Below, one piece after another: positions 16,958-64,000 of a stretch of DNA of 64,000 nt (positions are counted from its first letter, which is position 1; each line of letters starts with the position of its first letter). The translations under genes and the position numbers were made by a program. Source of the stretch: an uncultured virus (IMG/VR IMGVR_UViG_3300025030_000083) (taxonomy: Duplodnaviria > Heunggongvirae > Uroviricota > Caudoviricetes); IMG/VR virus record IMGVR_UViG_3300025030_000083, positions 1-64,000 of that record, one strand, 5' to 3'. The notes below the pieces were generated by a model. It ran no database searches. It was given only the letters and a program-made list of their open reading frames with translations, and was not told where the DNA came from.

Positions 16958-17881
16958 ATGGCCAATTATATAGAACTAAAAACAGAAGATTTCAAAGAAA
17001 TTTTTAATTCTTTACGCTTAAATTATCAAGAATTCGATAACCCCCGATCTGGAGAAATTCAATTCAAAGTTAAAACAGAACACCCCATAATTAGTGTTAT
17101 GATTTATTCTAGTGTAGACAAAAAAATGGGGGTAACAAGAGGAGTGGGGGAAGATGCAATTAGATTAGTTTTTTGGTCAGATAGAGATAATCGGCCTTTG
17201 GGAAAAGGAAAAAGGATCTACCGAGTTACCAATATGAAATCAATTTCCGATAGAATATCAAAAACAATAAAAGAGTTTCTTTCAAAAGCTCCTAATGAAT
17301 CTTTAACCGACTGGAGATATATCAAAGCCATATTAGAAGAAACGGTCAGAATTTCATCCAATCTGTCATTCGCAGAGAATCTTCTCACCGGATTGGAAAA
17401 GTACAAAAGTTTGACAGATGGGCAACTTGCCTATGTTTTGGGGGAAGTTTCTCCCAAAGGGTATGCAACCATGGAGGCGAAAATCCTGTCAAAAGGTTGG
17501 GTATATGATCCTACTTTCGTTGAAGTAGAAGAGGAAATCAGAGAACCAGGAGCCGACGAAAATGAATACGAAGCCCCTATCAAAGGGTGCGAGGCCCCTC
17601 AAGAAAACGGGAACGGGGGAGAGGACAGGGGGGAAAGAGATCGCCAAGTTCAAGTGGGAAAGTATAGCAACATAACAGTAGTATCGGACACTCCGGGGAT
17701 GGAATTAGTGCCCACTACCGGATACCCCTACAAATTTGAAAAATTTAACCCTGTTCAAAGTTTAGTATTCCCGTTTAGAAAAGATGATTGCAATTTGATT
17801 CTAGGATCTTCAACGAGTAGTGGTAAGACAATTGCAGCGGAGATAATTATGGAAGAAATTTTACGAGGGGGGAATCGGTGA
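16958..17881 (+). CDS. N-terminal fragment of a fractured Hel308/Ski2-like SF2 helicase (accessory domain, acidic linker, Q-motif, Walker A)
   Basis: Ends FEKFNPVQ...NLILGSSTSSGKTIAAEIIMEEILRGGNR*. The remaining helicase motifs are in 18833..20743. Confidence 0.85.
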   Translation: MANYIELKTEDFKEIFNSLRLNYQEFDNPRSGEIQFKVKTEHPIISVMIYSSVDKKMGVTRGVGEDAIRLVFWSDRDNRPLGKGKRIYRVTNMKSISDRISKTIKEFLSKAPNESLTDWRYIKAILEETVRISSNLSFAENLLTGLEKYKSLTDGQLAYVLGEVSPKGYATMEAKILSKGWVYDPTFVEVEEEIREPGADENEYEAPIKGCEAPQENGNGGEDRGERDRQVQVGKYSNITVVSDTPGMELVPTTGYPYKFEKFNPVQSLVFPFRKDDCNLILGSSTSSGKTIAAEIIMEEILRGGNR

Positions 17882-18843
17882 AAAGAAAGTTACTTTTAAT
17901 AAAACGAACCATTCCCAAATGTTTGTGTGGGTGCGGCAAAATAGTTAAATCAATAAGACATAATTTTATACATGGACATAATATTGTAATATTAATGAAA
18001 AATGATCCTAATTGGCATAAAAAATTAGAAAAGACAATGATGAAAAAATATGGAGTTAAAAATATTCAACAAATCCCAGAAGTAAGAAGTAGATCAGTAA
18101 AAACTAGAAAAGAAAGATATTCTCATTGGATGGGAAATCTAACAAAAAGTCAAATAGAAGAATTTAAACAAAATTGTTCAAAAGGTGGAAAAATAGGAGG
18201 AAAATCCACCGCAAAAAGATGGAAAGATAACCCAGAAGAATTTAACGAATTTTTAAGAAAAGGCCATGAATCTCAAAAAGGCCCCGGTAATCATTATGAA
18301 AATAGTAGAGGGATTAATAACCCCATGAATTTTCCGGGGATAAGAGAAAAACATAAACAAGCTGTTATAATAGCTATGAACAAAGAAGAAACGAAGAGGA
18401 AACAACGGGAAGGATACTACAAAAAATACGGAGTGCCCTATTTTGTACTAACTGAAGAACATATGAAAAGATTAAAAAATTGTTATTCAAAACCACATAA
18501 AGATCTATTTAATGCCTTACATAATATTGACCCCTCTTTTCAAAAAGAAAAATTAGTTCATACCAAAAAATCTTCTTATAGAGTTGATATTATAAACAAG
18601 CCCACAAAATTAATTATAGAATGCTACGGAGATTACTGGCATTGTAACCCTTTAATATGGAATCCAAATGATTATAATAAATCAATAAAAAGAACTGCCC
18701 AAGAAAAATGGAAAGAAGATGAAAGTAGAATTCAATCCATACAATCTGAAGGATTTAAAGTTTTAGTATTTTGGGAAATGGATATTATTCAAGATTTAGA
18801 GCAAATACTGCAAATTATAATAGGAGTAAAAAATGACAATTAA
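17878..18843 (+). CDS. Free-standing homing endonuclease (NUMOD-type repeats plus Vsr/DUF559-like nuclease) inserted in the helicase gene
   Basis: CLCGCG, KKYGV repeats, YRVDI...IIECYGDYWHCNP, GFKVLVFWE. Overlaps both helicase halves. Confidence 0.85.
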   Translation: MKRKLLLIKRTIPKCLCGCGKIVKSIRHNFIHGHNIVILMKNDPNWHKKLEKTMMKKYGVKNIQQIPEVRSRSVKTRKERYSHWMGNLTKSQIEEFKQNCSKGGKIGGKSTAKRWKDNPEEFNEFLRKGHESQKGPGNHYENSRGINNPMNFPGIREKHKQAVIIAMNKEETKRKQREGYYKKYGVPYFVLTEEHMKRLKNCYSKPHKDLFNALHNIDPSFQKEKLVHTKKSSYRVDIINKPTKLIIECYGDYWHCNPLIWNPNDYNKSIKRTAQEKWKEDESRIQSIQSEGFKVLVFWEMDIIQDLEQILQIIIGVKNDN

Positions 18844-20743
18844 GCAAGAAACAAAAAAAATATTGTACATGGCTCCGTTAAAATCGCTCAGTATGGAAAA
18901 ATATAATGATTGGAAAATCAGATTCCCCGACAAAAAAATATGTATTTTGACGGGGGATTACACCTTAACGGAAGAGAAATCAAGAGAACTTAATCAAGCC
19001 GATATAATCATTTGTACAAGCGAAATGGTAGACTCTCGTACCAGGAGAATGGGAACTGAGAAAGGATTTTGGCTGCACCAAGTGGGACTCCTAATAGTAG
19101 ACGAATCTCATATTTTAACTACATCAAGAGGTTCAGCAGTAGAAGCTGGAGTTATGAGATTTACGTCTATTAATAAAAATGCAAGAATTATTTTTCTATC
19201 CGCCACGATGCCAAACGTGGATGAACTAGGAGCTTGGCTTAAAACTTTAAACGGAAAAGAAACAAAGGTGATTTATTCTACTTGGCGTCCTGTAATTCTT
19301 CAATTTCATTATAAAGAATACCCCATCATAAGAACACGATTTGGAGGAGAAAGTTACCAAGCTGCTCAAGAAGCTAAAAAATCCATCGCTATTGAAATTG
19401 TTAAATCAAAACCTACTGAAAAGTTTTTAGTGTTTACTCATGATAAAGGAATTGGTAGAAGTCTTGTAAAACGATTTGCTGAAGAAGGAATAGAATCTCA
19501 ATTTCATAATGCAGATTTAGATTTAAATGAAAGACAAGAAATAGAGTCATCTTTTAGAAAAAGAGATGGTGGATTAAGAACTATGATTTCTACATCTACC
19601 ACTGCATGGGGTGTCAATCTCCCAGCAAGAAACGTAATTATAGTAGGCATTCATAGAGGAATTACAGAAGTAGATGAACTAGATATTCTGCAGATGTCAG
19701 GCAGAGCCGGAAGATACGGAATTGACTTGCAAGGAGACGTTTATTTAATCATTCCAGAAATGACTACAGAATCTTGGAAAGAAGTTTTTAGAAATCCAAG
19801 ACCTGTTACCTCCGTACTAAAATCTCACCAAGTTCTCGCATTTCACGTTTTAGCAGAAATTCAAAATAAAGTAGTAACGGACGCCAAATCTCTTCTTGCT
19901 TGGTACTCTCGTTCTCTAGCATATTTTCAAAAAGAAGAATTTACTATTGAAGATGCTAAAGGACTTTTAAACGATCTGGAAAAAATGGAAATGGTAATAA
20001 ATAAGGAGACTCATTACATTTTAACGGGGTTAGGAAAAGTATCAGGGTGGTTATATTTTTCACCTTACGACGTTTATCACTGGTTCAAGAATTTTGACCA
20101 ATTATTCGGAACCCCAAAAACAAACGATGTTTGTCCAGTTTGTAAACTTCCCAATATTATAACAGAACCCAAAATTTGTTGCGGATATTGTGGATGGTCT
20201 TATACAAAACCCATAGTAGATGATATATCCATATCATGGGCTTTAACAGATATTCCCTCGCATGATTGGGGGTACCTACCTAAAGAAATAAAAGATTTAG
20301 CGGAGGAAATGAGATGGAAACTTCGTAACCGGGGAATTATGGCGTCAGATGCTATACATTTTTCGTTGGCTGCTTATAAATTACTAAATGGAGATGAATT
20401 AGACGGTCCTTTGAAAACTAATGCTCGAACTATTAAATATGATATTCAACGAGTAATTCAGGCATTAAGTTTAATAGATTTTCATCATGGACGTTGGGAC
20501 AAAAAAGAATTTTGGAAAATTATCCCAATTAGAATTCAATATGGAATACCAGAGGAAATGATCCCCCTCGTAAAAATTCCAGGGATCGGGGGAGTTAAGG
20601 CACGCAAACTTTTTGATAGAGGGATTCATTCTTTACAAGATATCCTTGAAAAGACGGAGGTTTTGAAATCTATTTTTGTCCCCACATTCGTCAAGAAAAT
20701 ACAAAATGACGCCCGTAAAATAATATTAGCGGAGGGGAAATGA
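18833..20743 (+). CDS. C-terminal fragment of the Hel308/Ski2-like helicase
   Basis: Motif Ia YMAPLKSL, II VDESH, III LSATMPN, FHNADL, V STSTTAWGVNLPA, VI QMSGRAGR, winged helix, Zn-ribbon insert, C-terminal HhH IPGIGGVKARKL. Own AGGAG RBS. Confidence 0.9.
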   Translation: MTIKQETKKILYMAPLKSLSMEKYNDWKIRFPDKKICILTGDYTLTEEKSRELNQADIIICTSEMVDSRTRRMGTEKGFWLHQVGLLIVDESHILTTSRGSAVEAGVMRFTSINKNARIIFLSATMPNVDELGAWLKTLNGKETKVIYSTWRPVILQFHYKEYPIIRTRFGGESYQAAQEAKKSIAIEIVKSKPTEKFLVFTHDKGIGRSLVKRFAEEGIESQFHNADLDLNERQEIESSFRKRDGGLRTMISTSTTAWGVNLPARNVIIVGIHRGITEVDELDILQMSGRAGRYGIDLQGDVYLIIPEMTTESWKEVFRNPRPVTSVLKSHQVLAFHVLAEIQNKVVTDAKSLLAWYSRSLAYFQKEEFTIEDAKGLLNDLEKMEMVINKETHYILTGLGKVSGWLYFSPYDVYHWFKNFDQLFGTPKTNDVCPVCKLPNIITEPKICCGYCGWSYTKPIVDDISISWALTDIPSHDWGYLPKEIKDLAEEMRWKLRNRGIMASDAIHFSLAAYKLLNGDELDGPLKTNARTIKYDIQRVIQALSLIDFHHGRWDKKEFWKIIPIRIQYGIPEEMIPLVKIPGIGGVKARKLFDRGIHSLQDILEKTEVLKSIFVPTFVKKIQNDARKIILAEGK

Positions 20744-32945: not shown

Positions 32946-33815
32946 ATGAGAAAATTAATATGGCCTACTTATGGCGGAGTATACAAGATATTAAATGTAA
33001 TGAATGGTAAAGTTTATGTGGGGTCCGCTGCTAATTTTAAATCTAGATGGAAGTTTCATTTAGGCCAACTTCGTTACGGAAACCATCACTCTATAACTCT
33101 TCAAAGAGCTTATAACAAATATGGTGAAAGGAATTTTATGTTCGTAATTATAGAAGTAATAAAAGATAAAACAAAATTGAAAGAAAGAGAACAAATTTGG
33201 AAAGATTTTTATAAATCATATGATCCGAGATATGGATATGATATATGTCCTAAAGCTGAAAATTGCTTAGGAGTAAAACATACTCCAGAAACATGTGCCA
33301 AAAGATCTGTGGCCACCAAAAGAAATTGGGCAAATCCTGAATGCAGAGAAAGAATTATGACAAATCTAAAAAAAAGTCTATCCGATCCAGAATATAAATC
33401 TAAAATGGCAAAGATAACTAAAAAGATGTGGGAAAATCCAGAACTAAGAAAAAAAATGTTAGATGGCCAAAATAATAGAAAACCTCTAAGTACGGAAACC
33501 AAAAATAAAATCGCCTTTAGAAATAGAGAAATAGCCAAAGATCCTGAATGGAGAGCTAAAGTGTCCGCATCAAACAAAGGAAAAGTTAGGAGTGAAGAAG
33601 CTAGAGCTAATATGTCTATAGCCCAAAAGGGAAGGCCGAGAAAACCCCACTCTGCAGAGACTAAAGCAAAAATAGCAAAAGCTGCCCATAAACGATGGGC
33701 AAATCCTAAATTTCAAGAAAAAATGAAAAACATAATGGATAGTAAAGAATACCACGATAAAATATCTAAATCTCAAAAGATAAGATACAATAAACAAAAA
33801 GAAACTAAGCAATGA
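32946..33815 (+). CDS. GIY-YIG homing endonuclease with NUMOD3 repeats
   Basis: GVYKILN...KVYVGS...RW..H, REQ.W.D, H+.ETKAKI repeats. Confidence 0.9.
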   Translation: MRKLIWPTYGGVYKILNVMNGKVYVGSAANFKSRWKFHLGQLRYGNHHSITLQRAYNKYGERNFMFVIIEVIKDKTKLKEREQIWKDFYKSYDPRYGYDICPKAENCLGVKHTPETCAKRSVATKRNWANPECRERIMTNLKKSLSDPEYKSKMAKITKKMWENPELRKKMLDGQNNRKPLSTETKNKIAFRNREIAKDPEWRAKVSASNKGKVRSEEARANMSIAQKGRPRKPHSAETKAKIAKAAHKRWANPKFQEKMKNIMDSKEYHDKISKSQKIRYNKQKETKQ

Positions 33816-46421: not shown

Positions 46422-46829
46422 TTGAAAAAAGATATTAGAGAATTAAAATTTGGTTCCATCGTAGGATTTCGTTCAGATAGTCTTTGTTGTCCTCAAGCAT
46501 TCGGGGGGGATTGCTTTGCTGGTTGCAGTGCAGGTTGCAATTGGATGTGTCTATCAGGAGATACACCAATTAACTTATCAAATGGTACTTCTAAACCTAT
46601 AGAAGAGTTGAAAGTAGGGGATAAAGTATTAACTTATAATGAAAAAACATTTGAAGTAGAATCTAAATTAATTAAACATACTATGAATAGGAGTTCAGAA
46701 ATTATCAAAATAAAAATAGGAAATAAATTATTGAAAATAACTAAAAATCATAAAGTATTTACTGATCGGGGGTGGGTGGAAGCAGGGGAATTAATAAAGG
46801 GGGATAAAGTATTAATTTATGAAAAATGA
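46422..46829 (+). CDS. Radical SAM enzyme 1, N-extein plus split-intein N-half (IntN 46548-46826)
   Basis: ...GCSAGCNWM|CLSGDT (block A), IEELKVGDKV, block B ITKNHKVFT..GWVEAGEL, then stop. Confidence 0.9.
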   Translation: MKKDIRELKFGSIVGFRSDSLCCPQAFGGDCFAGCSAGCNWMCLSGDTPINLSNGTSKPIEELKVGDKVLTYNEKTFEVESKLIKHTMNRSSEIIKIKIGNKLLKITKNHKVFTDRGWVEAGELIKGDKVLIYEK

Positions 46830-47799
46830 AATCCCTACTTGCATAGATTGTGGTAAAATAGTTTGGAGGGGCACTTCTAAAAGATGTTGGGATTGTTGGA
46901 AAAAATTAGTATCTATAAAAGACCCTAGATGTAGACCTACCCCTAAAATTAAGCCTAAAATAGTATCCCATTGCGTTGTTTGTGGGGAGGAAATTTTTAA
47001 GGATCATAAACATTGTAGAAAATGTTGGGATATTTTATTAACCACCGATCAAAACCCGATGAAATTAAAAAAGAAAAAATACCCAGAAGGATCTTTAGAA
47101 TCAGTTATTTGTATTTGCGGTTCTAAAAAATGTTCGGGGAGCAAAATTTGTATGAGCTGTAGAAAAATAGAACTATCTTCAGATAAAAATCCTTGCCATA
47201 ATTCTAATAATTTCTTTAAAAGAACAAATCCTATGAAAGATCCTAAAATTTTAGCAAAATCCTTAGTTAGTCATAGAAAAACCTATGCTCAAGAAGGATA
47301 CGTTCATCCTAATACGGGGAAGAGAAACGAGTGGTCTATAGAAAGAATGACTAATAATAATCCAATGAAAGATCCTATTATAGCTGCAAAATCTTCTGGG
47401 GAACGACATTGGTCCCATACTCAACCTGAAAACTTTGCTAAACACTTAAAAAATATATTCGCTATTTTAAATACTAACGGCCATATATCAAAGGGACAAA
47501 AAGCATTATATTCCGCTTTGAATAATTTAAAAATAAAATTTTTCCCCGAACAACAATTTATTTTCAAAGGAGAACCGTATTCTTATATTTTCGTAGATGC
47601 CTACGACCCGATAAACAACATAGCTTGGGAATATGACGGGTTTTATACTCATCGAGATGGGAAAGGACCAAAATTAGATTCTATAAGAGACCGATTACTG
47701 AAATTTTGTTATGGGGTTAAAACTATCCGAATATTGCCAGAAGACCTCCCAAATTTAGAAAGTATAATCGTGGAGAAATTGCAATGCTTAAATGGGTAG
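46819..47799 (+). CDS. Free-standing homing endonuclease (Zn-finger and NPMK repeats plus Vsr/DUF559-like nuclease) between split-intein halves
   Basis: CxxC repeats, NPMKDP repeats, SKGQ..LY, VDAY....IAWEYDG.Y.H, D..RD. Confidence 0.85.
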   Translation: MKNEIPTCIDCGKIVWRGTSKRCWDCWKKLVSIKDPRCRPTPKIKPKIVSHCVVCGEEIFKDHKHCRKCWDILLTTDQNPMKLKKKKYPEGSLESVICICGSKKCSGSKICMSCRKIELSSDKNPCHNSNNFFKRTNPMKDPKILAKSLVSHRKTYAQEGYVHPNTGKRNEWSIERMTNNNPMKDPIIAAKSSGERHWSHTQPENFAKHLKNIFAILNTNGHISKGQKALYSALNNLKIKFFPEQQFIFKGEPYSYIFVDAYDPINNIAWEYDGFYTHRDGKGPKLDSIRDRLLKFCYGVKTIRILPEDLPNLESIIVEKLQCLNG

Positions 47800-48965
47800 A
47801 AATATCAAAAGTTATGCCTGAAGAAGAAACTATTCAAGTATTTAATATAGAAGTGGAAGATAACCCCAATTATTTTGCAGACGGGGTACTAGTTCATAAT
47901 TGTTTTTGTAGAGAAATGGAGGCAGGACTATATAACCATTATTATACGGGGTGGACAAGAGATTTAGTAAGGGCCTGTAATCCAGATGACTTTAAACAAT
48001 TATTTGATAAAGCCTTTGGATCAGATAAATATTACGATAATTGGAATATTCAATGTCTTCGTAGAGGACTCCCTTTTAATATGGGAAGCAAAGCAGAAAC
48101 ATTCTGTTTAGAAGATATGAGGGATAACGTAGTTGTCCCAGTTCTCAAATTATTCAAAGAATATAAAGTACCCATGATCATCGAAACGAAAAGCCATTAC
48201 GTCGGATTAAAAAAATATTTGGACCTTCTGAAAGATATAAACGTAGCTATTATCATTTCTATCATGGGGGGAAGTGACACTCTGAATTATAAATTGGAGC
48301 CGGGATTACCTCCCCCATCTATGAGATGGTCCCTAGTTAAGACGCTAAACGACATGGGTATTTGGACGGCTGTGCGTTGGGAACCAATCCTAGTGGGAAT
48401 CAATTCAAAAGAAGACATGTTGGAAGGGTACGCTGAGATGGCATCTCGTACTGGAGCTAAACATGTTAGTTTTTTCAATTATCGAACGTCAAATTACAAA
48501 ATAGCTCAAAAAGAATTCGAAAGCAGAGGATATAATTACGTCAAACTTTTGGAAAAGAATCTAGATGAAAATTGGACTCCCGTAGGAAAACAATTTAGAG
48601 AAATTTTGAAAAATAAAAACGTCCCTGCGTCCTCCCCTGATTTTGTAAATTTTCCATTTAGTAATTCTTGTGAAAGTTGTTGTGGAGTTGATGGGCTATT
48701 CGTTCCCTACGAATTTACTTTTCAACATGCTTGTAAAATAATAATGGAAAAGGGGTTAGTTTGTTGGGATGATATGGAAGCAATAACCTTTCGACAGCCT
48801 GAGGCTTATGATCGAATGAAAGAAATTTGGAATGGAAAGGGACAATATTTCTCTTTGAATGATAGCCCAGAAATTAAAGTTTTAGATAAAGATAAAAATG
48901 GTATGAATATTTATGGAAGAAAAGAAGAAGGCTCCGTTGAAGATAAGAAAGGACTTCTATTTTGA
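47784..48965 (+). CDS. Split-intein C-half (47784-47900) plus C-extein of radical SAM enzyme 1 (SplB/Rv2578c-like)
   Basis: [38 protein letters not shown]....R...+K.L...GI....R.EPI. Confidence 0.9.
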
Positions 48966-51229
48966 AAAGAATATTAGTAACGGGGGGAGCCGGTTTTATT
49001 GGATCTCACCTATGTAAAAAATTATTGGAATTGAGAAATGAAGTTATTTGCTTAGACAATTTTTTTTCTTCTACCAAAAAAAATATTATTCCATTAATGA
49101 CTAATCCTAATTTTGAATTATTACGTCATGATGTAACCTTTCCCCTATATATTGAAGTAGACGAGATATATAATCTAGCGGCTCCGGCATCCCCAATTTA
49201 TTACCAAAAGGACCCCGTTCAAACCACTAAGACGATAGTTCACGGGGCTATAAATATGCTAGGATTAGCCAAGAGGACTAAAGCTAAAATATTGCAAGCA
49301 TCCACATCAGAAGTATACGGGAATCCCCAAGAACATCCTCAAACGGAGGAATATTGGGGCAATGTAAATCCAATCGGAATTAGATCATGCTATGATGAAG
49401 GGAAAAGATGTGCAGAGACGTTATTTTTCGATTACTACAGACAAAATAATGTTCCCATCCGGGTGGTTAGAATATTCAATAGTCTTACGGGGGACCAAAA
49501 AGTTATTTACTATAAAAATGGTATTTTAAAGTATAAAAAATTTATAGATTGCTATGACGATATAAAAAATGAGATAGAAAATATAATAGTTCCTTGCTTT
49601 GGTAAAGATAACCGATATGTTCTTTCCCCTATTAGTGGAATCCATAAACATAAAGTGACAAAAAACGGCTACGAATTATTTTTAACTTGGGGAAAACAAA
49701 TAAAATTGACGGAGGATCATGGAGTTTTCATTTTAAATAAAAATCAGAAAATTCAAGAAAAATTTGTCAAAGATTTGGTAATTGGTGATATTATTGCTAT
49801 ACCAAATCAAATAAAATGGATAGATATTCCATTAATGCCATTTAAAATATCAAATATTCTAAAACAAGATTTTAATTTTTATGTATCTAATGATGATGAT
49901 TTAGAAAGGATTATTAACAATAAATATTTTATAAATAAATGTAAACAAAGTGGTGTTGGATTACCATCAACTATAAATAATTTCAAAAGAGTCAAAAGAA
50001 TAAAATCCAGTTTTCTCAAAAGTAATAATATTATACTAAACTCCAATGATTATATCGTTCTAGATGATTCTAAGCATATTATTAAAAATAATATTAATAT
50101 TATGGAGGAATTTTTGTGGTTTTTAGGTTTTTATGTTGCAGAAGGAAGTTTAGTAAATAATAATGGGGGGGATTATCAATTACATTTTTATTCTGATTTG
50201 AAATACCTTCAAAAATTAAATCAAATAATTTATAATTTATTTGAATTAGAAACAAAAATTTATTCCTCAGATACAAAACCTCATATTTGTATTCGTAGTA
50301 AAATCATTTTTGAATTGGTAACTAAATATTTTGAATTTGGAATTAAAAAACAACTAGAAAAAATTATTCCAGATTGGATTATACAATTACCCAAAGATCA
50401 ACTTAAATGGTTCCTTTTAGGATTTTGGGAAGGGGATGGAAACCACGATGCTAAAACTACTGGTAATAAATTAATTTTTAGTTCATCTAGCATAAATTTG
50501 ATAGACAATTTAAATTTAATTTTATTAAAATTTGGGATAATTGGGAGTACCTGTTGCTATTATACTACATGCAGTAAAGATAATCCCAAACTTTATAAAG
50601 GATACTTAATAACGGTGCAAGGATTAAGCCATTATGATATATCTAGATTAGATACCGTAGTTCAAAAATTACAAAGAAAAAAGAATAGCGATATTCAATG
50701 GGCGCATATCAAAGATATAAAAAAATTTGATTTAATAGAAGAGAATGTTTATGATTTCTCCGTGAAAAATTTTGAAAATTTTATTGGAGGAGATTTAATA
50801 TCTTGCCATAATACTTATGGCCCCAATATGAAAATAAACGATGGAAGGGTAGTATCTAATTTTATAGTTCAAGCATTAACGAGTAAACCTATAACCATTT
50901 ATGGAAATGGAAAACAAACTCGATCTTTTTGCTATATAAGTGATACTGTGAATGGTTTGATATCTATGATGGAACAGGATAAATATGTGGGCCCTATTAA
51001 TTTGGGGAATCCAGAAGAATTGAAAATAGTGGACGTAGCAAATCTCATAGTAAATTTAACCGAATCTGATTCTAAATTAGAATTCAAATCTTTGCCATTA
51101 GATGATCCTACTAGGAGAAAGCCAGATATATCTTTGGCCAAAGAAATATTAAAATGGAGGCCAAAAGTAAATTTTAAAGAAGGATTGCAATATACAATAA
51201 AATATTTTAAAGATACGTTAGGGAGATAA
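48962..51229 (+). CDS. UDP-glucuronate decarboxylase (UDP-xylose synthase-like extended SDR) containing an intein
   Basis: [46 protein letters not shown]|intein|[19 protein letters not shown]. Confidence 0.92.
49481..50812 (+). mobile_element. 444-aa intein with LAGLIDADG endonuclease
   Basis: Ser1 SLTGDQ, block [15 protein letters not shown] and [14 protein letters not shown]...SCHN|T. Confidence 0.9.
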
Positions 51230-51918: not shown

Positions 51919-52674
51919 ATGAAAAGAATATCTGGGGTATATATGATTCTTAATAGAATCAACGGAAAGAAATATATAGGATCTTCTAAAGACGTGTATA
52001 ACAGATGGAATCAACATTTGACGGAACTTCGTAAGGGAAAACATACTAAACATATACAAGCAGCTTATTATAAATATGGGGAAGAATCTTTTGTATTTAT
52101 GGTAATAGAAATAATTAAATATTTAGATCAATTAACTACTAGGGAACAATATTGGAAAGACTTTTATAAATCATATGATCGAATATATGGATATGATATT
52201 TGTAGATATGCTAGTTCTACTTTGGGGTATAAGCATACAGAAAAAACTAAGAAAAAAATAAGTTTAGCTCATAATGGAAAAATAAATTCAGAAGAAACGA
52301 GGGGGAAAATAAGTTTAGCTAATAAAGGAGAAAATCACCCTTTATTTGGGAAACACCATACAGAAGAAACTAGAAAAAGAATGAGTTTAATACATATAGG
52401 AAAACATCCTTCTGAAGAAACTAAAGCAAAAATAGGTTTGGCCAATAAAGGAAAACATATTCTTTCGGAGGAGTTAAAAAGAAAATTAAGTTTAGCTAAT
52501 AAAGGAAAACATCTTTCTAAAGAACATAAAGAAAAAATAAGTTTAGCTTTAAAAGGAAAACCTCTTTCTGAGGAGACTAAGAAAAAAATGAGTTTATCCG
52601 GTAAAGGAAAACCAAAATCTGAAGAAACTAAAATAAAGATGAGAATAGCAGCTAAGAAAAGAGCGAATCATTGA
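51919..52674 (+). CDS. GIY-YIG homing endonuclease with NUMOD3 repeats
   Basis: GVYMILN..NGKKYIGSS, several (H/L)SEETKxK(I/M)S...KGK repeats. Confidence 0.92.
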   Translation: MKRISGVYMILNRINGKKYIGSSKDVYNRWNQHLTELRKGKHTKHIQAAYYKYGEESFVFMVIEIIKYLDQLTTREQYWKDFYKSYDRIYGYDICRYASSTLGYKHTEKTKKKISLAHNGKINSEETRGKISLANKGENHPLFGKHHTEETRKRMSLIHIGKHPSEETKAKIGLANKGKHILSEELKRKLSLANKGKHLSKEHKEKISLALKGKPLSEETKKKMSLSGKGKPKSEETKIKMRIAAKKRANH

Positions 52675-52965: not shown

Positions 52966-53517
52966 ATGAAATTATTTAACGGATATTGGGAGTTGCGTGA
53001 ACTGGTGAAGAACATCATCCCAAGAAGAGGAATGCTGGACTTTCTAGAAAAACATAAAGGACTAGTTAAAGAAAAGGGTAGAAAAATTGGATACAAGGAA
53101 TTTTCATTCGATAGTGAAAAATTTGAAATAAAACAAAGATTGCTCAATAAAGATGAAATTACTTCTTTCCTTGAAGTGAGCCTAAGAAAAAATCATTGCC
53201 CCATGCCCCTTAATGCAGATGTTTATGATGCACTATACTGCATAGCAAAAGGTCAATTGATTACTACTAAAACAGGATTCAAAAAAATTGAAGATATAAA
53301 GGTGGGGGATGAGATAGCCTCATATAACGAATCGACCAAAAAAGTAGAGTTTACCCAAGTTTTGTTATCATCTTCTTCAGAAAAAACTAATTTAGTAGAA
53401 ATAGAAACTGAAAAAGGACTTCTAGTTGTTACGGAAGATCACCAAATTTTTACCAAACGAGGGTGGGTAGAAGCCGGGCAACTTAATGAAGACGACTTAC
53501 TTTTGGAGATATATTAA
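52966..53517 (+). CDS. Radical SAM enzyme 2, N-extein plus split-intein N-half (IntN 53239-53514)
   Basis: ...ADVYDALY|CIAKGQ, IEDIKVGD, VTEDHQIFTKRGWVEAGQL, then stop. Confidence 0.9.
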   Translation: MKLFNGYWELRELVKNIIPRRGMLDFLEKHKGLVKEKGRKIGYKEFSFDSEKFEIKQRLLNKDEITSFLEVSLRKNHCPMPLNADVYDALYCIAKGQLITTKTGFKKIEDIKVGDEIASYNESTKKVEFTQVLLSSSSEKTNLVEIETEKGLLVVTEDHQIFTKRGWVEAGQLNEDDLLLEIY

Positions 53518-54662
53518 TGGGTAAACGAGGACCAGCCAAAGGCTGCATTCCTTGGAATAAAGGGAAAACAGGGGTGCAAGCAGCTTGGAATAAAGGTATT
53601 CCAAGGACAGAAAAAGAAAAAGAAGCTATCAGAAATGGAATATCAGAAGAATCCCGACAAATTCAATCTGAAATAAAGAAAGAACAATGGAAGCAAGGAA
53701 AATATGATAGTATGTTCGGAGATACTAATCCTGCCTGCAGAGAAGAAGTTAAGAAAAAAATAGGAGATGCTAATAGAAGAAGAATTTGTTCAGAACAGAC
53801 TAGGGAAAGGATATCAAAATCCCGGACGGGAAAACCGGGGGCAATTTGGACAAAGAAAATGAAAGAAAATGCCTCTGTTAGAATGAAAGAAAATAATCCT
53901 ATGAAAGATGAAGAGATTAAAAATAAAAGTCATGAATCTCTAATGAAAACATTAAATGATCCTAATTTTGTTCACCCAAATAAAGGTAGATTAAGGCCTG
54001 ATTTATTAGGAAAACCTAGCAAAATGTCTGAGGAAGCCAAGGATATAGCTTCTGCTAGAATGAAGGAAGATAACCCCATGAAGGTTCTGGAGATAAGAAA
54101 TAGAATGATCGAGTCTTATAAAAGAACTTGTGCTTTAGATGGTTATGTACATCCTAATAAAGGAAGAGAACGTTTGGATGCTAAGAATAGAATGTTATCT
54201 AATAACAATCCCATGAAGGATCCAGAAACTGCTAGACTAGTTTGGGCTAAAGCAAAAGAAACCATAAAGAAAAACGGGGGGATATCCGAAGGGCAAAGGA
54301 AACTTTATGAATATTTAGATTCTATGGGATTTAAATACGAACCGGAGTGCTTCTTTCAATTGGGACAATTAGATTTTTCTTATATTCTTGCCGATGCTTA
54401 TTTGCCGGATTTTAAAATAATTATAGAATACGATGGTTATAGTGACCATTATTCAGAAGAGGGGATAAAAAGAGATCGTAAAAGAGATGATTATGTAGAT
54501 AAATTATTTCAAATATCAGTCATAAGAATAGACACTAATTCTATTTTTGCTAAAGATGTGGATAAAACTATTTTAAAAGCCATTGACGAACTTAAAACAG
54601 TTTCTTCCCCTAAAACTATTTACATTGGAAAAATCAGGGAGATTTTAATAAATGCAAACTAG
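53517..54662 (+). CDS. Free-standing homing endonuclease (NPMK repeats plus Vsr/DUF559-like nuclease) between split-intein halves
   Basis: PWNKG, NNPMKD repeats, SEGQ..LY, ADAY.....IIEYDG...H, D.KRD. Similar to 46819..47799. Confidence 0.85.
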   Translation: MGKRGPAKGCIPWNKGKTGVQAAWNKGIPRTEKEKEAIRNGISEESRQIQSEIKKEQWKQGKYDSMFGDTNPACREEVKKKIGDANRRRICSEQTRERISKSRTGKPGAIWTKKMKENASVRMKENNPMKDEEIKNKSHESLMKTLNDPNFVHPNKGRLRPDLLGKPSKMSEEAKDIASARMKEDNPMKVLEIRNRMIESYKRTCALDGYVHPNKGRERLDAKNRMLSNNNPMKDPETARLVWAKAKETIKKNGGISEGQRKLYEYLDSMGFKYEPECFFQLGQLDFSYILADAYLPDFKIIIEYDGYSDHYSEEGIKRDRKRDDYVDKLFQISVIRIDTNSIFAKDVDKTILKAIDELKTVSSPKTIYIGKIREILINAN

Positions 54663-56352
54663 ATTTAAGAAAATAAAAAGTCTACGGAAAATTAGTAAAC
54701 CTACTGCTGTATTTGATTTAACTGTAGATAGAAATAGCAATTTCTTTGCATCTTCCCAATTAGTTCATAATTGCAGCTACGCATGCAAATATTGTTTACC
54801 TCCTAAAACCAAAATACAAATGTGGAATGGTATAAAAAAGAATATAGAAAAAATTAAAGAGGGAGATGAGGTTGTTTCTCTAAATACTTATAATAGTTTA
54901 TTGATAGAAGAAAAATCAATCGTTCAAAAAATAATGAGCAGAGCTACCGAAGACTTAATAGTTATCAAAACTAAAAATAATATTCTAAAGTTAACCCCAG
55001 AGCATACAATATTTACTACTAGGGGTTGGATAGAAGCAAATAAATTAAATATGCATGATATGATGATATCCCCATATTATTCTAAATCTAATAGTGTTTC
55101 TAAATGGGAATGGAGTAGAATTGAATCTATATCTAGAGCAAAAACTAGTGGTAAAAAAATAGTCTATAATTTTGAGTGTCAACCTAATAATAATTATTTT
55201 GCAGAGGGAATTCTTGTACATAATTGTTTTGCGGACTCTTTTCGCAGTTCTCTTTATACTTCATTCTTTGATAACCCCAAGGAAATTGGAATACGCCACT
55301 GCCGTCCAGAATACTTTCGAGCAGAGATGGATAAATTAATGCCATATAGGGGAAAGAAAATAGATGGCCCAGAATTAAATAAAGCAATCAGTCTACAAAT
55401 TCCCATCCGTCTAGGAATTCGATTTGAAGATTTTCTTCCTATCGAAGCTCAAAAAGGAATCAGTTTGAATTTTATGCAATATTTATCTGATATTGCATAT
55501 CCCATAATGGTGAACACTAAGTCTGCGTTAATCGGAAGAGAAGATTACGTTAGGGCACTAGCAGATAATAAAGGTGGTGCTGCTGTTCATATGACGGCGA
55601 TATCTTCAGATGGTATTCTAAATAAAAAGTTGGAACCTGGCGCCCCGTCTTTTGAGAAACGCATGCTTGCTGTAAAAGCCCTTACGGATGCAGGGGTTAG
55701 GGTTGTCGCAAGGATCGAGCCATTCATGGTCTTTGTGAACGATGATCCTTATTATGTTCAAAAATGGATACAGGGAGTCAGGGAAGCAGGGATTAAACAT
55801 ATCACTTTTGATACATATAGCTACTCCGCTTCTGCCCCTGGAGTTGAACGCCAAATGGAAATGGAAGGAATAGATTTTCGTAGAATGTTTTTGCTAATGT
55901 CAGATAGTCAGTGGTTGGGTTCTTTGATTTTAGGAGAATTTATGAAAATGATGAAATCCGAGGGATTTTCAACTTCCACCTTCGATTTCGGGAATTCCCC
56001 GATCAATAATGATGAAATCTGCTGCTCCGTATCAGATGTTTACTTACCCCTGGGTGGAGGGTTCTCCTACGGGAACAACATGATTGCTGCTAGGTTTGTT
56101 CGGGATAACGGACCCCACCCAGTAACGTGGGGGAAATATAACGCTTTCGTAGAGGAACGTGGGGGGTGGTTATCAGAAACCTTAATGCAAGAAGTAAAGA
56201 ATTCGTGGAATCTTGGGGGACATCAAGCATATCAGGTGGATTGGGCCCAGGGAATTGAACCTTATGGAAGAGATCGAGAAGGAAATATAGTTTGGAGATA
56301 TATTGAAAGTTCTGACTTCCGCTTAGAAATGTTAGAAAATTTGGTCCGGTGA
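54652..56352 (+). CDS. Split-intein C-half (54652-54771), 7-aa extein, cis mini-intein (54793-55224) and C-extein of radical SAM enzyme 2 (SplB/Rv2578c-like)
   Basis: VFDLTV..NSNFFA..QLVHN|CSYACKY|CLPPKT...LTPEH...NYFAEGILVHN|CFADS. NTKS, KLEPGAPS...R..A+K.L..AG+.V..RIEP. Confidence 0.9.
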   Translation: MQTRFKKIKSLRKISKPTAVFDLTVDRNSNFFASSQLVHNCSYACKYCLPPKTKIQMWNGIKKNIEKIKEGDEVVSLNTYNSLLIEEKSIVQKIMSRATEDLIVIKTKNNILKLTPEHTIFTTRGWIEANKLNMHDMMISPYYSKSNSVSKWEWSRIESISRAKTSGKKIVYNFECQPNNNYFAEGILVHNCFADSFRSSLYTSFFDNPKEIGIRHCRPEYFRAEMDKLMPYRGKKIDGPELNKAISLQIPIRLGIRFEDFLPIEAQKGISLNFMQYLSDIAYPIMVNTKSALIGREDYVRALADNKGGAAVHMTAISSDGILNKKLEPGAPSFEKRMLAVKALTDAGVRVVARIEPFMVFVNDDPYYVQKWIQGVREAGIKHITFDTYSYSASAPGVERQMEMEGIDFRRMFLLMSDSQWLGSLILGEFMKMMKSEGFSTSTFDFGNSPINNDEICCSVSDVYLPLGGGFSYGNNMIAARFVRDNGPHPVTWGKYNAFVEERGGWLSETLMQEVKNSWNLGGHQAYQVDWAQGIEPYGRDREGNIVWRYIESSDFRLEMLENLVR

Positions 56353-63488: not shown

Positions 63489-64000
63489 ATGCGAGGGTTC
63501 TTTGATATACCAACTCCTGCTAAAGCAGCCCAACCAAAAACCCCCCGAGGGGCCGTAGGTTGTGACGCATGTGGGCTGAAAAATCGTACCCTATCCCCAA
63601 ATATTCCCCCCACTGGTGAAGGAAAACTTAAAACCTTCATATTGGGGGAAGCTAGTGGTGAGCGAGAAGATCAACTGAACAATCAATTTATAGGAGAAAC
63701 TGGCCATTTTCTTAGAAAATGCTTTAGGATTATGGGGTACGATCTAGATAGAGATTTCAGAAAAACTAATGCCGTAGCGTGTTTTGTTTATCATCAAGTT
63801 CCTATATTTACTATAGATGGGTATAAACCTGTATCTAAAGTTAAGGTGGGGGATTTAGTATTAACCCATAAAGGAAGATTTAGAAAGGTAATATCTAGAA
63901 TTCAAGATCTTCCCAAGCACCTTAAAAGAATTACTGAAGAAGTTTACAAAATTAAAGTGGGGAGGATCAATTCTCCTTATAAAAATAGAAGTTTGAAAGA
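63489..64000 (+). CDS. Family-4 uracil-DNA glycosylase domain (possibly the N-terminus of an SPO1-type DNA polymerase) with an intein starting at 63780; truncated by the window edge
   Basis: My translation: CDACGL, ILGEASGERED....F+GETG.FL, TNAVA|CFVYHQVPIFTIDGYKPVSKVKVGDLVLTHKGRFRKV (intein block A). Confidence 0.8.
   Translation, partial: MRGFFDIPTPAKAAQPKTPRGAVGCDACGLKNRTLSPNIPPTGEGKLKTFILGEASGEREDQLNNQFIGETGHFLRKCFRIMGYDLDRDFRKTNAVACFVYHQVPIFTIDGYKPVSKVKVGDLVLTHKGRFRKVISRIQDLPKHLKRITEEVYKIKVGRINSPYKNRSLK

Follow-up and report, generated by a model that had tools for sequence, protein, structure and literature searches.

A viral radical SAM gene predicted to mature by one trans- and one cis-splicing event at two ligand cysteines of its iron-sulfur cluster

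How a radical S-adenosylmethionine (SAM) enzyme could be made from a gene whose CxxxCxxC motif is broken at two of its three cysteines is the question raised by a locus at positions 52966-56352 of a 64,000-nucleotide stretch (hereafter designated the window) of IMG/VR record IMGVR_UViG_3300025030_000083, a 75-kb record of an uncultured Caudoviricetes virus that is ~45% complete. The initial annotation described this locus as an extein ending in DALY followed by the N-terminal half of a split intein (IntN), and, beyond an endonuclease gene, the C-terminal half (IntC) followed by the residues CSYACKY, a 144-residue mini-intein, and CFADS. Every one of these features is present, and the locus resolves into three open reading frames (ORFs) with the following parts.

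52966-53517, + strand: ORF1, comprising the N-extein and IntN
52966-53238, + strand: N-extein of the radical SAM enzyme, 91 residues, MKLFNGYWELR...DALY
53239-53517, + strand: IntN of split intein a with its TAA stop codon, 92 residues, CIAKG...TEDHQIFT...LLEIY (coding part 53239-53514)
53517-54662, + strand: ORF2, a predicted free-standing homing endonuclease gene, 381 residues
54652-56352, + strand: ORF3, comprising IntC, CSYACKY, mini-intein c, and the C-extein
54652-54771, + strand: IntC of split intein a, 40 residues, ending in FFASSQLVHN
54772-54792, + strand: internal extein CSYACKY, 7 residues (21 nucleotides, nt), with Cys1 and Cys2 of CxxxCxxC
54793-55224, + strand: contiguous mini-intein c, 144 residues, CLPPK...TPEHTIFT...ILVHN, without an endonuclease domain
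55225-56352, + strand: C-extein with its stop codon, 375 residues starting from Cys3, CFADSFRSSLY (coding part 55225-56349)

Seven pieces of the locus are all in frame and open, with all catalytic residues retained, and the first and third Fe-S ligands are, as had been proposed, the +1 residues of two different inteins lying 21 nt apart. The TAA of ORF1 and the ATG of ORF2 share 1 nt (TAATG, 53515-53519), the end of ORF2 and the start of ORF3 overlap by 11 nt (54652-54662), and a GGAG-type motif is directly readable 7-12 nt 5' of every start codon of the three ORFs. A scan of the locus for promoters and terminators gave no signal above shuffles and no terminator-like site between the ORFs, and a repeat scan of the locus returned only the internal repeats of the endonuclease.

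Removal of both inserts restores a contiguous, conserved host sequence. Thus, with the intein-free homologue P0004 as the reference, the N-extein covers residues 1-91 with no gap (70% identity, E 6e-46), CSYACKY and the following Cys align to residues 92-99 (CSYGCKY at 92-98), and the C-extein corresponds, again without gaps, to residues 99-473 (75% identity), the three exteins together making 91 + 7 + 375 = 473 residues. This gap-free alignment of all three exteins suggests that the doubly spliced 473-residue product would be the normal form of the protein. Indeed, the CxxxCxxC motif exists only in the predicted spliced product, as CSYACKY plus C, and among 59 intein-free homologues the residues C78, C92, C96, and C99 (P0004 numbering) are invariant. 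Because the doubly spliced product alone is collinear with the intein-free homologues, 94 of which were compared, the claim that two splicing reactions are needed gains support as an inference from sequence, the mature enzyme presumably requiring one trans- and one cis-splicing event.

The assignment of both inserts as inteins was examined with profiles and solved structures. ORF1 matches the Pfam profile PT-HINT (E 2.5e-9) and ORF3 the profile Intein_splicing (E 6.5e-19), and a six-frame profile search placed the IntC of intein a on positions 114-155, the last 42, of the intein profile (E 1.9e-8). Mini-intein c matches the solved Spl DnaX mini-intein (7cfv, E 4.7e-10), and the IntN of intein a matches the solved inteins 2lwy, 7cfv, and NrdJ-1 (8ubs, E 5.3e-4), the last of which is itself from a fractured gene. 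Moreover, both inteins possess the residues characteristic of class 1 (Cys1, TxxH, HN, and +1 Cys), namely Cys1, block B VTEDH, an LVHN end, and +1 Cys in split intein a, and Cys1, block B TPEH, an LVHN end, and +1 Cys in mini-intein c. The two halves of intein a carry opposite net charges, IntN -6 and IntC +6. On the level of sequence, neither the intein matches nor the gap-free collinearity of the exteins is a product of chance.

Collectively, these findings make it very probable that two independent mobile inteins invaded the radical SAM gene at two cysteines serving as [4Fe-4S] ligands, and that the protein matures by two splicings. ORF1 and ORF3 would be expressed from one message, with the reading frames coupled via the overlapping stop and start codons, ORF1 giving the N-extein fused to IntN and ORF3 giving IntC-CSYACKY-mini-intein-C-extein. 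Cis-splicing of the mini-intein would join ...CKY to CFADS..., and association of the negatively charged IntN (-6) with the positively charged IntC (+6) would lead to trans-splicing, joining ...DALY to CSYACKY.... The final 473-residue enzyme would possess an intact CSYACKYC and would carry the peptide DALYCSYACKYCFADS. Since both +1 nucleophiles are cluster ligands, the cluster would be bound only after both splicings. Either order of splicing would be possible, and each one-step intermediate would have an architecture that is the native precursor of relatives, with an intein at Cys3 only (P0002) or a fracture at Cys1 only (P0062 and L025). As to the origin of the double occupancy, the Cys1 cassette would have homed, driven by its endonuclease, into an allele already occupied at Cys3.

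The host enzyme was characterized by the same profile methods. The Radical_SAM match in P0004 begins at residue 91, beside C92/C96/C99, and the profile (PF04055) scores 22.3 bits for ORF3 and 26 bits for P0004 versus a gathering threshold of 29.5; it matches 58 of the 59 intein-free homologues at E <= 0.001. The NCBIfam cut-offs of the PA0069 and Rv2578c families (360 and 430 bits, respectively) were missed by both the C-extein (49.7 and 43 bits) and P0004 (50.8 and 44.7 bits). With scores so far below these cut-offs, the classification goes no further than a radical SAM protein with affinity to the SPL/'DNA repair photolyase' group; by these sequence measures, the protein is related to, and distinct from, the PA0069 and Rv2578c families and belongs to a mostly viral family. 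A tblastn search of 50,697 deposited phage genomes with the C-extein gave no match, and a PDB search with the host-enzyme profile gave nothing at E <= 0.01.

The gene lying between the two intein halves had been taken for an endonuclease gene, which its relatives corroborate. ORF2 is predicted to consist of N-terminal repeated NPMK/NUMOD3-like DNA-binding modules, with four NP(M/A)(K/C) repeats in its N-terminal two thirds, and a C-terminal Vsr-like (EDxHD/DUF559) nuclease domain. Its sequence alone falls below the Pfam thresholds (DUF559, 16.5 bits; cut-off 20.6), and a PDB sequence search with it gave matches at chance level only. From the 246 homologues of ORF2, a profile of the nuclease domain was built with the C-terminal domains of 40 aligned sequences, and this profile matched the DUF559 endonuclease-like protein 3hrl (E 7.7e-7) and the catalytic domain of I-Bth0305I (3r3p, E 9.5e-6). 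In the alignment, five positions do not vary (D59, E70, D72, G73, and D86) and two are almost constant (H77 and D90); among the 40 aligned homologues, 15 are associated with DUF559, 8 with NUMOD3, and 6 with a HINT fusion. By homology, the nuclease domain is thus of the EDxHD/Vsr-like type, and ORF2 is presumably an active endonuclease.

Relatives of the locus were surveyed by classifying the best 120 of 542 homologues of the C-extein together with two sequences from longer proteins (122 in total). Most (94) are full-length, intein-free proteins of 461-526 residues with a contiguous CxxxCxxC near residue 88; three more have the contiguous motif and a short N-terminus, three are fragments beginning past the motif, and the remaining 22 contain an intein or intein half, two inteins being found in one alone, the window's own protein. 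In a set of 80 viral loci, 66 lack inteins (21-nt gap), six have a cis intein at Cys3, four are fractured at Cys1, one is fractured at Cys3, and three are from this phage. Across the relatives, the insertion sites fall at four invariant cysteines in a stretch of 22 residues, among them every cysteine of CxxxCxxC, which bears out the earlier view of the region as a homing hotspot.

Site 0, C78 (CPMPLN): carriers P0014 and P0121; N-halves P0280 and P0286
Site a, C92 (Cys1): the window, P0062, L025, L036, L048, and L060; N-halves P0274, P0276, P0283, and P0284
Site b, C96 (Cys2): carrier P0037
Site c, C99 (Cys3), cis forms: four (P0002, P0064, P0090, and P0122)
Site c, C99 (Cys3), free IntC forms: three (P0027, P0053, and P0119)
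Site c, C99 (Cys3), endonuclease-IntC fusions: 10
Site c, C99 (Cys3), N-halves: P0277-P0279, P0281, P0282, P0285, and P0287
Site c, C99 (Cys3), loci: L017, L071, L091, and L093

The cassette at Cys1 is shared with the distant loci L025 and L048 (C-extein ~50% identical), in which the IntN, the endonuclease, and the IntC are all homologous to those of the window; ORF2 is 46% identical to the same-site endonuclease of L048. The endonuclease is free-standing in the window, L025, and L048, is fused to IntN in L060, and persists as a remnant in L036. At Cys3, the mini-intein of P0090 retains the junction 'WLSPFFFGLKWTKIDSI', which is also present in the endonuclease-IntC fusions. A search of longer proteins (658-2000 residues) for a contiguous double-intein form yielded two matches, neither of them double: P0121, an endonuclease-IntC fusion at site 0, and P0122, with a large cis intein at Cys3. 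Likewise, a metagenome scan with the IntC-7-residue-intein junction detected 10 loci, two of which are this phage, and no other double.

The evolutionary relationship between the two inteins was analyzed with a maximum-likelihood tree of 23 IntN or N-lobe sequences. The IntNs from sites a and 0 form one clade (support 95/93), where the IntN of the window adjoins P0274 and P0276, and mini-intein c is sister to the intein of P0002 (100/99) in a separate 'CLPP' group of Cys3 inteins. Identity between intein a and mini-intein c is 39% in the N part and 36% in the C part. By this phylogeny, the two inteins of the window belong to different lineages; their interpretation as local duplicates was rejected on the tree placement. 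The IntC of intein a resembles those of P0062 (site a), P0037 (site b), and P0014/P0121 (site 0), and the IntCs at these three sites share the pattern FDLT..N.NFF...LVHN and are basic in five of five cases. From this likeness, a single intein lineage seems to have moved among neighboring cysteines.

The order of arrival can be approached through the closest relative phage (L007/L008/L010/L013), whose C-extein is 84% identical, whose locus is syntenic, and which carries only the Cys3 intein, its site a being uninterrupted (...DALS|CSYQCKYC). Because the closest relative has the Cys3 intein alone, the inteins most likely arrived one after the other, the Cys3 intein first and the Cys1 cassette later. 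This phage and the L007-type relative co-occur in metagenome Ga0209727, and a variant contig in run X19 ends with the same 14 letters as the L007 sequence.

Three IMG/VR contigs are 100% identical over 5.2 kb of the locus, four contigs of run X20, a run that carries no possible-source flag, span every junction at 100% identity, and contigs of 48 kb and 49 kb cover the whole locus. Nearly all sampled words of the locus were found in 20 runs, and the exact ORF1 protein is recorded on 41 contigs. No contig skipping an intein was found in the runs, where contigs drop rare variants, and the sole joint listed was a go-back with 4,993 intervening letters. A separate ORF1 variant of 164 residues, P0275, for which no contig is listed, differs by a single substitution and by the loss of 19 residues from the IntN, in the part that separates block A from block B; either allele decay or faulty assembly may account for it.

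Several observations weigh against the maturation of this protein by two splicings. In the primary precursor, two HINT domains are held on a 7-residue tether, and this is the only state without precedent among the relatives. In the relatives, the loci, and the junction scans alike, double occupancy is confined to this phage, so that the double state may not survive divergence; the ORF1 variant P0274, 85% identical, is on a 1.1-kb contig, with the downstream half outside it. The coexistence of a relative with an empty site a suggests that the endonuclease may be inactive or that the relative's site may be resistant. None of the runs listed with this stretch is recorded as RNA. The ratios of nonsynonymous to synonymous substitution rates (dN/dS) relative to L007, which speak for purifying selection on the exteins and the mini-intein, are 0.084 for the N-extein, 0.158 for mini-intein c, and 0.076 for the C-extein, and these values are rough because dS is saturated between the alleles compared. 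Finally, the 27-51-nt spacer or hairpin found in published fractured genes is missing upstream of the window's endonuclease gene.

These points are best judged beside the other explanations of the locus. If the radical SAM gene were decaying, a non-functional remnant carried along by the phage after the endonuclease, one intein, or both inteins had lost activity, then the uniqueness of double occupancy to this lineage, the absence of 19 IntN residues in P0275, and the decay of the cassette in relatives, such as the endonuclease remnant in L036, would be readily accounted for; yet all pieces are open and in frame with complete catalytic residues, dN/dS relative to the relative is 0.08-0.16, rough as it is, and the locus is 100% identical in the three IMG/VR contigs and in contigs of four runs, is found in 20 runs, and has its ORF1 on 41 contigs, which together render decay very unlikely. 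An error of assembly or gene calling, by which a chimeric contig would have merged alleles with different inteins, might be suspected from the metagenomic source and from the presence of a single-intein relative in the same samples. It is next to impossible, however, with the 48-kb and 49-kb contigs spanning the locus, the X20 contigs bridging all junctions at 100% and none skipping an intein, and the three IMG/VR contigs identical over 5.2 kb.

The initial annotation had also raised the possibility that the splicings follow an order or respond to redox state or metals. Under such control, formation of the oxygen-labile enzyme would be restricted to conditions that are reducing and replete with iron. 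Cys2 (at -3) and Cys1 of the mini-intein, for instance, might form a disulfide that blocks the first step, as in the MoaA intein of Pyrococcus abyssi (Pab; Callahan et al. 2011), in which, according to reviews, a Cys(-3)-Cys1 disulfide stops splicing when oxidized (PMC3922620, PMC10663303). The junction ...C-K-Y|C-L-P-P does place a Cys at -3 relative to Cys1 of mini-intein c, the same CxxC is present in every Cys3-site intein, and four cysteines of ORF3 fall within nine residues (C1, C2, the intein Cys1, and later C3). Nevertheless, site a has Ala at -3 (A-L-Y|C), and the -3 Cys is inherent in the insertion point; the CxxC, arising automatically from where the intein was inserted, gives no evidence of selection for gating, and conditional maturation is regarded as unlikely. 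In a more specific form, CSYACKY between the two inteins would act as a redox- or metal-sensitive checkpoint that imposes the splicing order, through a C2-Cys1 disulfide or through Zn or Fe held by four or five thiols, and the precursor may be kept until conditions suit the enzyme. We give this checkpoint little credence; if true, no natural pair of mutually orthogonal inteins among those surveyed would lie closer together, and the pair could serve directly for ligating three pieces in one pot.

Maturation by two splicings can be compared with known systems, of which the closest are the fractured genes of Dassa, London, Stoddard, Schueler-Furman & Pietrokovski (2009; PMC2677866). In that paper, the IntNs comprise 88-105 residues and the IntCs 33-54 residues, Vsr-like endonucleases occur in half of the fractured genes, eight enzyme types are listed, and the endonuclease gene is preceded by 27-51 nt of non-coding DNA that frequently contains a hairpin. 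As in those loci, the window has two host ORFs on the same strand, a split intein, an intervening free-standing Vsr-like endonuclease gene with NUMOD3-type repeats that overlaps the start of the downstream gene, a phage origin, and intein halves (92 and 40 residues) within the published ranges. Unlike those loci, its host gene codes for an enzyme of the radical SAM type, absent from the eight listed, and it has a second, contiguous intein 7 codons downstream; the DnaE-1 locus of Dassa et al. contains an extra in-frame intein, such proximity not being described in the sections consulted. As for the nuclease itself, the Vsr-like family was given the name EDxHD by Taylor et al. (2011; PMC3239194), whose prototype, I-Bth0305I, has a footprint of ~60 bp and, where it cleaves, a core of 14 bp. 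ORF2 is likewise multidomain, with N-terminal DNA-binding repeats and the residues D / E-x-D-G / D plus a near-invariant H, and differs in lying between intein halves, whereas I-Bth0305I belongs to a group I intron.

The second intein has a counterpart in the Pab MoaA intein. MoaA is a radical SAM enzyme, and its intein presumably lies inside the CxxxCxxC motif. According to the reviews cited (PMC3922620, PMC10663303), the Pab intein splices in cis, as predicted for mini-intein c, and interrupts an oxygen-labile enzyme; it shares with mini-intein c the C-x-x|C spacing and, unlike the inteins of the window, is archaeal and single. The MCM inteins also occupy nearby sites in one gene, with doubles arising via sequential invasion of single alleles and not via co-homing, which agrees with the existence of a relative of the window having the Cys3 intein alone; they differ in that both are contiguous with endonuclease domains of their own and that the host is archaeal, not a phage. 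The NCBIfam family NF038136, described as an intein-containing Rv2578c family radical SAM protein, belongs to the same broad SPL/PA0069/Rv2578c group as the window's enzyme. The C-extein scores 34.6 bits against it with a cut-off of 700 and is not a member; the existence of a curated model shows that curators are aware of inteins in this broad radical SAM group.

Tandem splicing with two orthogonal inteins was reportedly engineered by Shi and Muir in 2005, and in SICLOPPS a comparable short segment is flanked by intein parts. The window resembles these engineered systems in having a short middle segment between an IntC and the N-terminus of an intein and in its two predicted splicing reactions, and differs from engineered tandem splicing in being natural, in its predicted combination of trans- with cis-splicing, and in having as its middle segment a 7-residue piece of a metal-binding motif. 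A scheme for splicing three segments is given in PMC12707363.

The fractured-gene layout has been known since 2009, and mini-inteins are also known. In the literature search, no paper joined inteins with CxxxCxxC or with Rv2578c; the listed titles and abstract openings of the literature on inteins and radical SAM enzymes do not describe this arrangement, PMC3322345 contains no such case, and Novikova 2015 (PMC4760082) mentions neither Fe-S nor multiple inteins under the terms searched. Within that literature, the following are thus undescribed: the predicted action, within a single precursor, of two inteins from different lineages, one split and the other contiguous, separated by only 7 residues; the apparent use of two (across the relatives, three) Fe-S ligand cysteines of a radical SAM enzyme as predicted +1 nucleophiles; and a single gene family comprising almost every stage of the gene-breaking model of 2009, that is, empty sites, cis mini-inteins, free endonucleases, IntN-endonuclease and endonuclease-IntC fusions, remnants, and double occupancy. 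The locus offers a natural test of the minimal working distance between two HINT domains and of the tolerance of a homing endonuclease for an intein that lies just 21 nt away from its target. It is relevant, too, to whether enzyme maturation is coupled to redox state via splicing at cluster ligands and provides protein engineering with a candidate pair of co-evolved orthogonal inteins.

Other genes of this phage are also interrupted. A second fractured radical SAM gene lies at 46422-48965, consisting of a short N-extein plus IntN (46422-46829), an endonuclease gene (46819-47799) whose product of 326 residues, at 37% identity to ORF2, combines zinc ribbons with a Vsr-like domain of the same type, and an IntC plus C-extein (47784-48965). 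The C-exteins of this gene and of the main locus are paralogues (23% identity, E 5e-30), and since the alignment starts from the +1 Cys, the split is at the homologous third cysteine; the N-extein ends in CSAGCNWM and would give CxxxCxxxC, not CxxxCxxC. The charges of its halves (IntN +4, IntC -6) are opposite to those of intein a (-6, +6). Reversed polarity was considered as a rule for split inteins of the Cys3 lineage and rejected, as the charges vary.

A DEAD/ResIII helicase gene (16958-20743) is apparently cut after the GKT of Walker A by a DUF559/Vsr-like endonuclease gene (17878-18843), and its halves contain no intein pieces, which suggests a genes-in-pieces arrangement without splicing. 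The gene for an NAD-dependent sugar dehydratase/epimerase (48962-51229) contains a large intein with a LAGLIDADG endonuclease domain, and the syntenic dehydratase of L007 is intein-free with 318 residues. Free-standing GIY-YIG endonuclease genes are found at 51919-52674, with NUMOD3 repeats, and at 32946-33815, the former being absent at the syntenic position in L007. Beyond the window, a weak intein-profile match (E 1.4e-4, G000:C1:64617-64790) is associated with a frame of 1174 residues opening at window position 63489, and with this match at least five intein-bearing or fractured genes would be present in 75 kb.

In some relatives, the studied gene has neighbors of its own. It is preceded by another radical SAM paralogue in the distant relatives L017 (2434-4325), L060 (2753-3640), and L025 (1915-2946), and in L017 and L060 also by an ORF that, by eye, resembles a pyridoxal phosphate (PLP)-dependent enzyme. 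In L089 (613-1845), a variant of the relative phage, an ORF of 411 residues with a C-terminal CxxC...CxxC zinc-ribbon pattern is inserted 5' of the radical SAM gene and resembles, by eye, a transposon-type (TnpB-like) protein.

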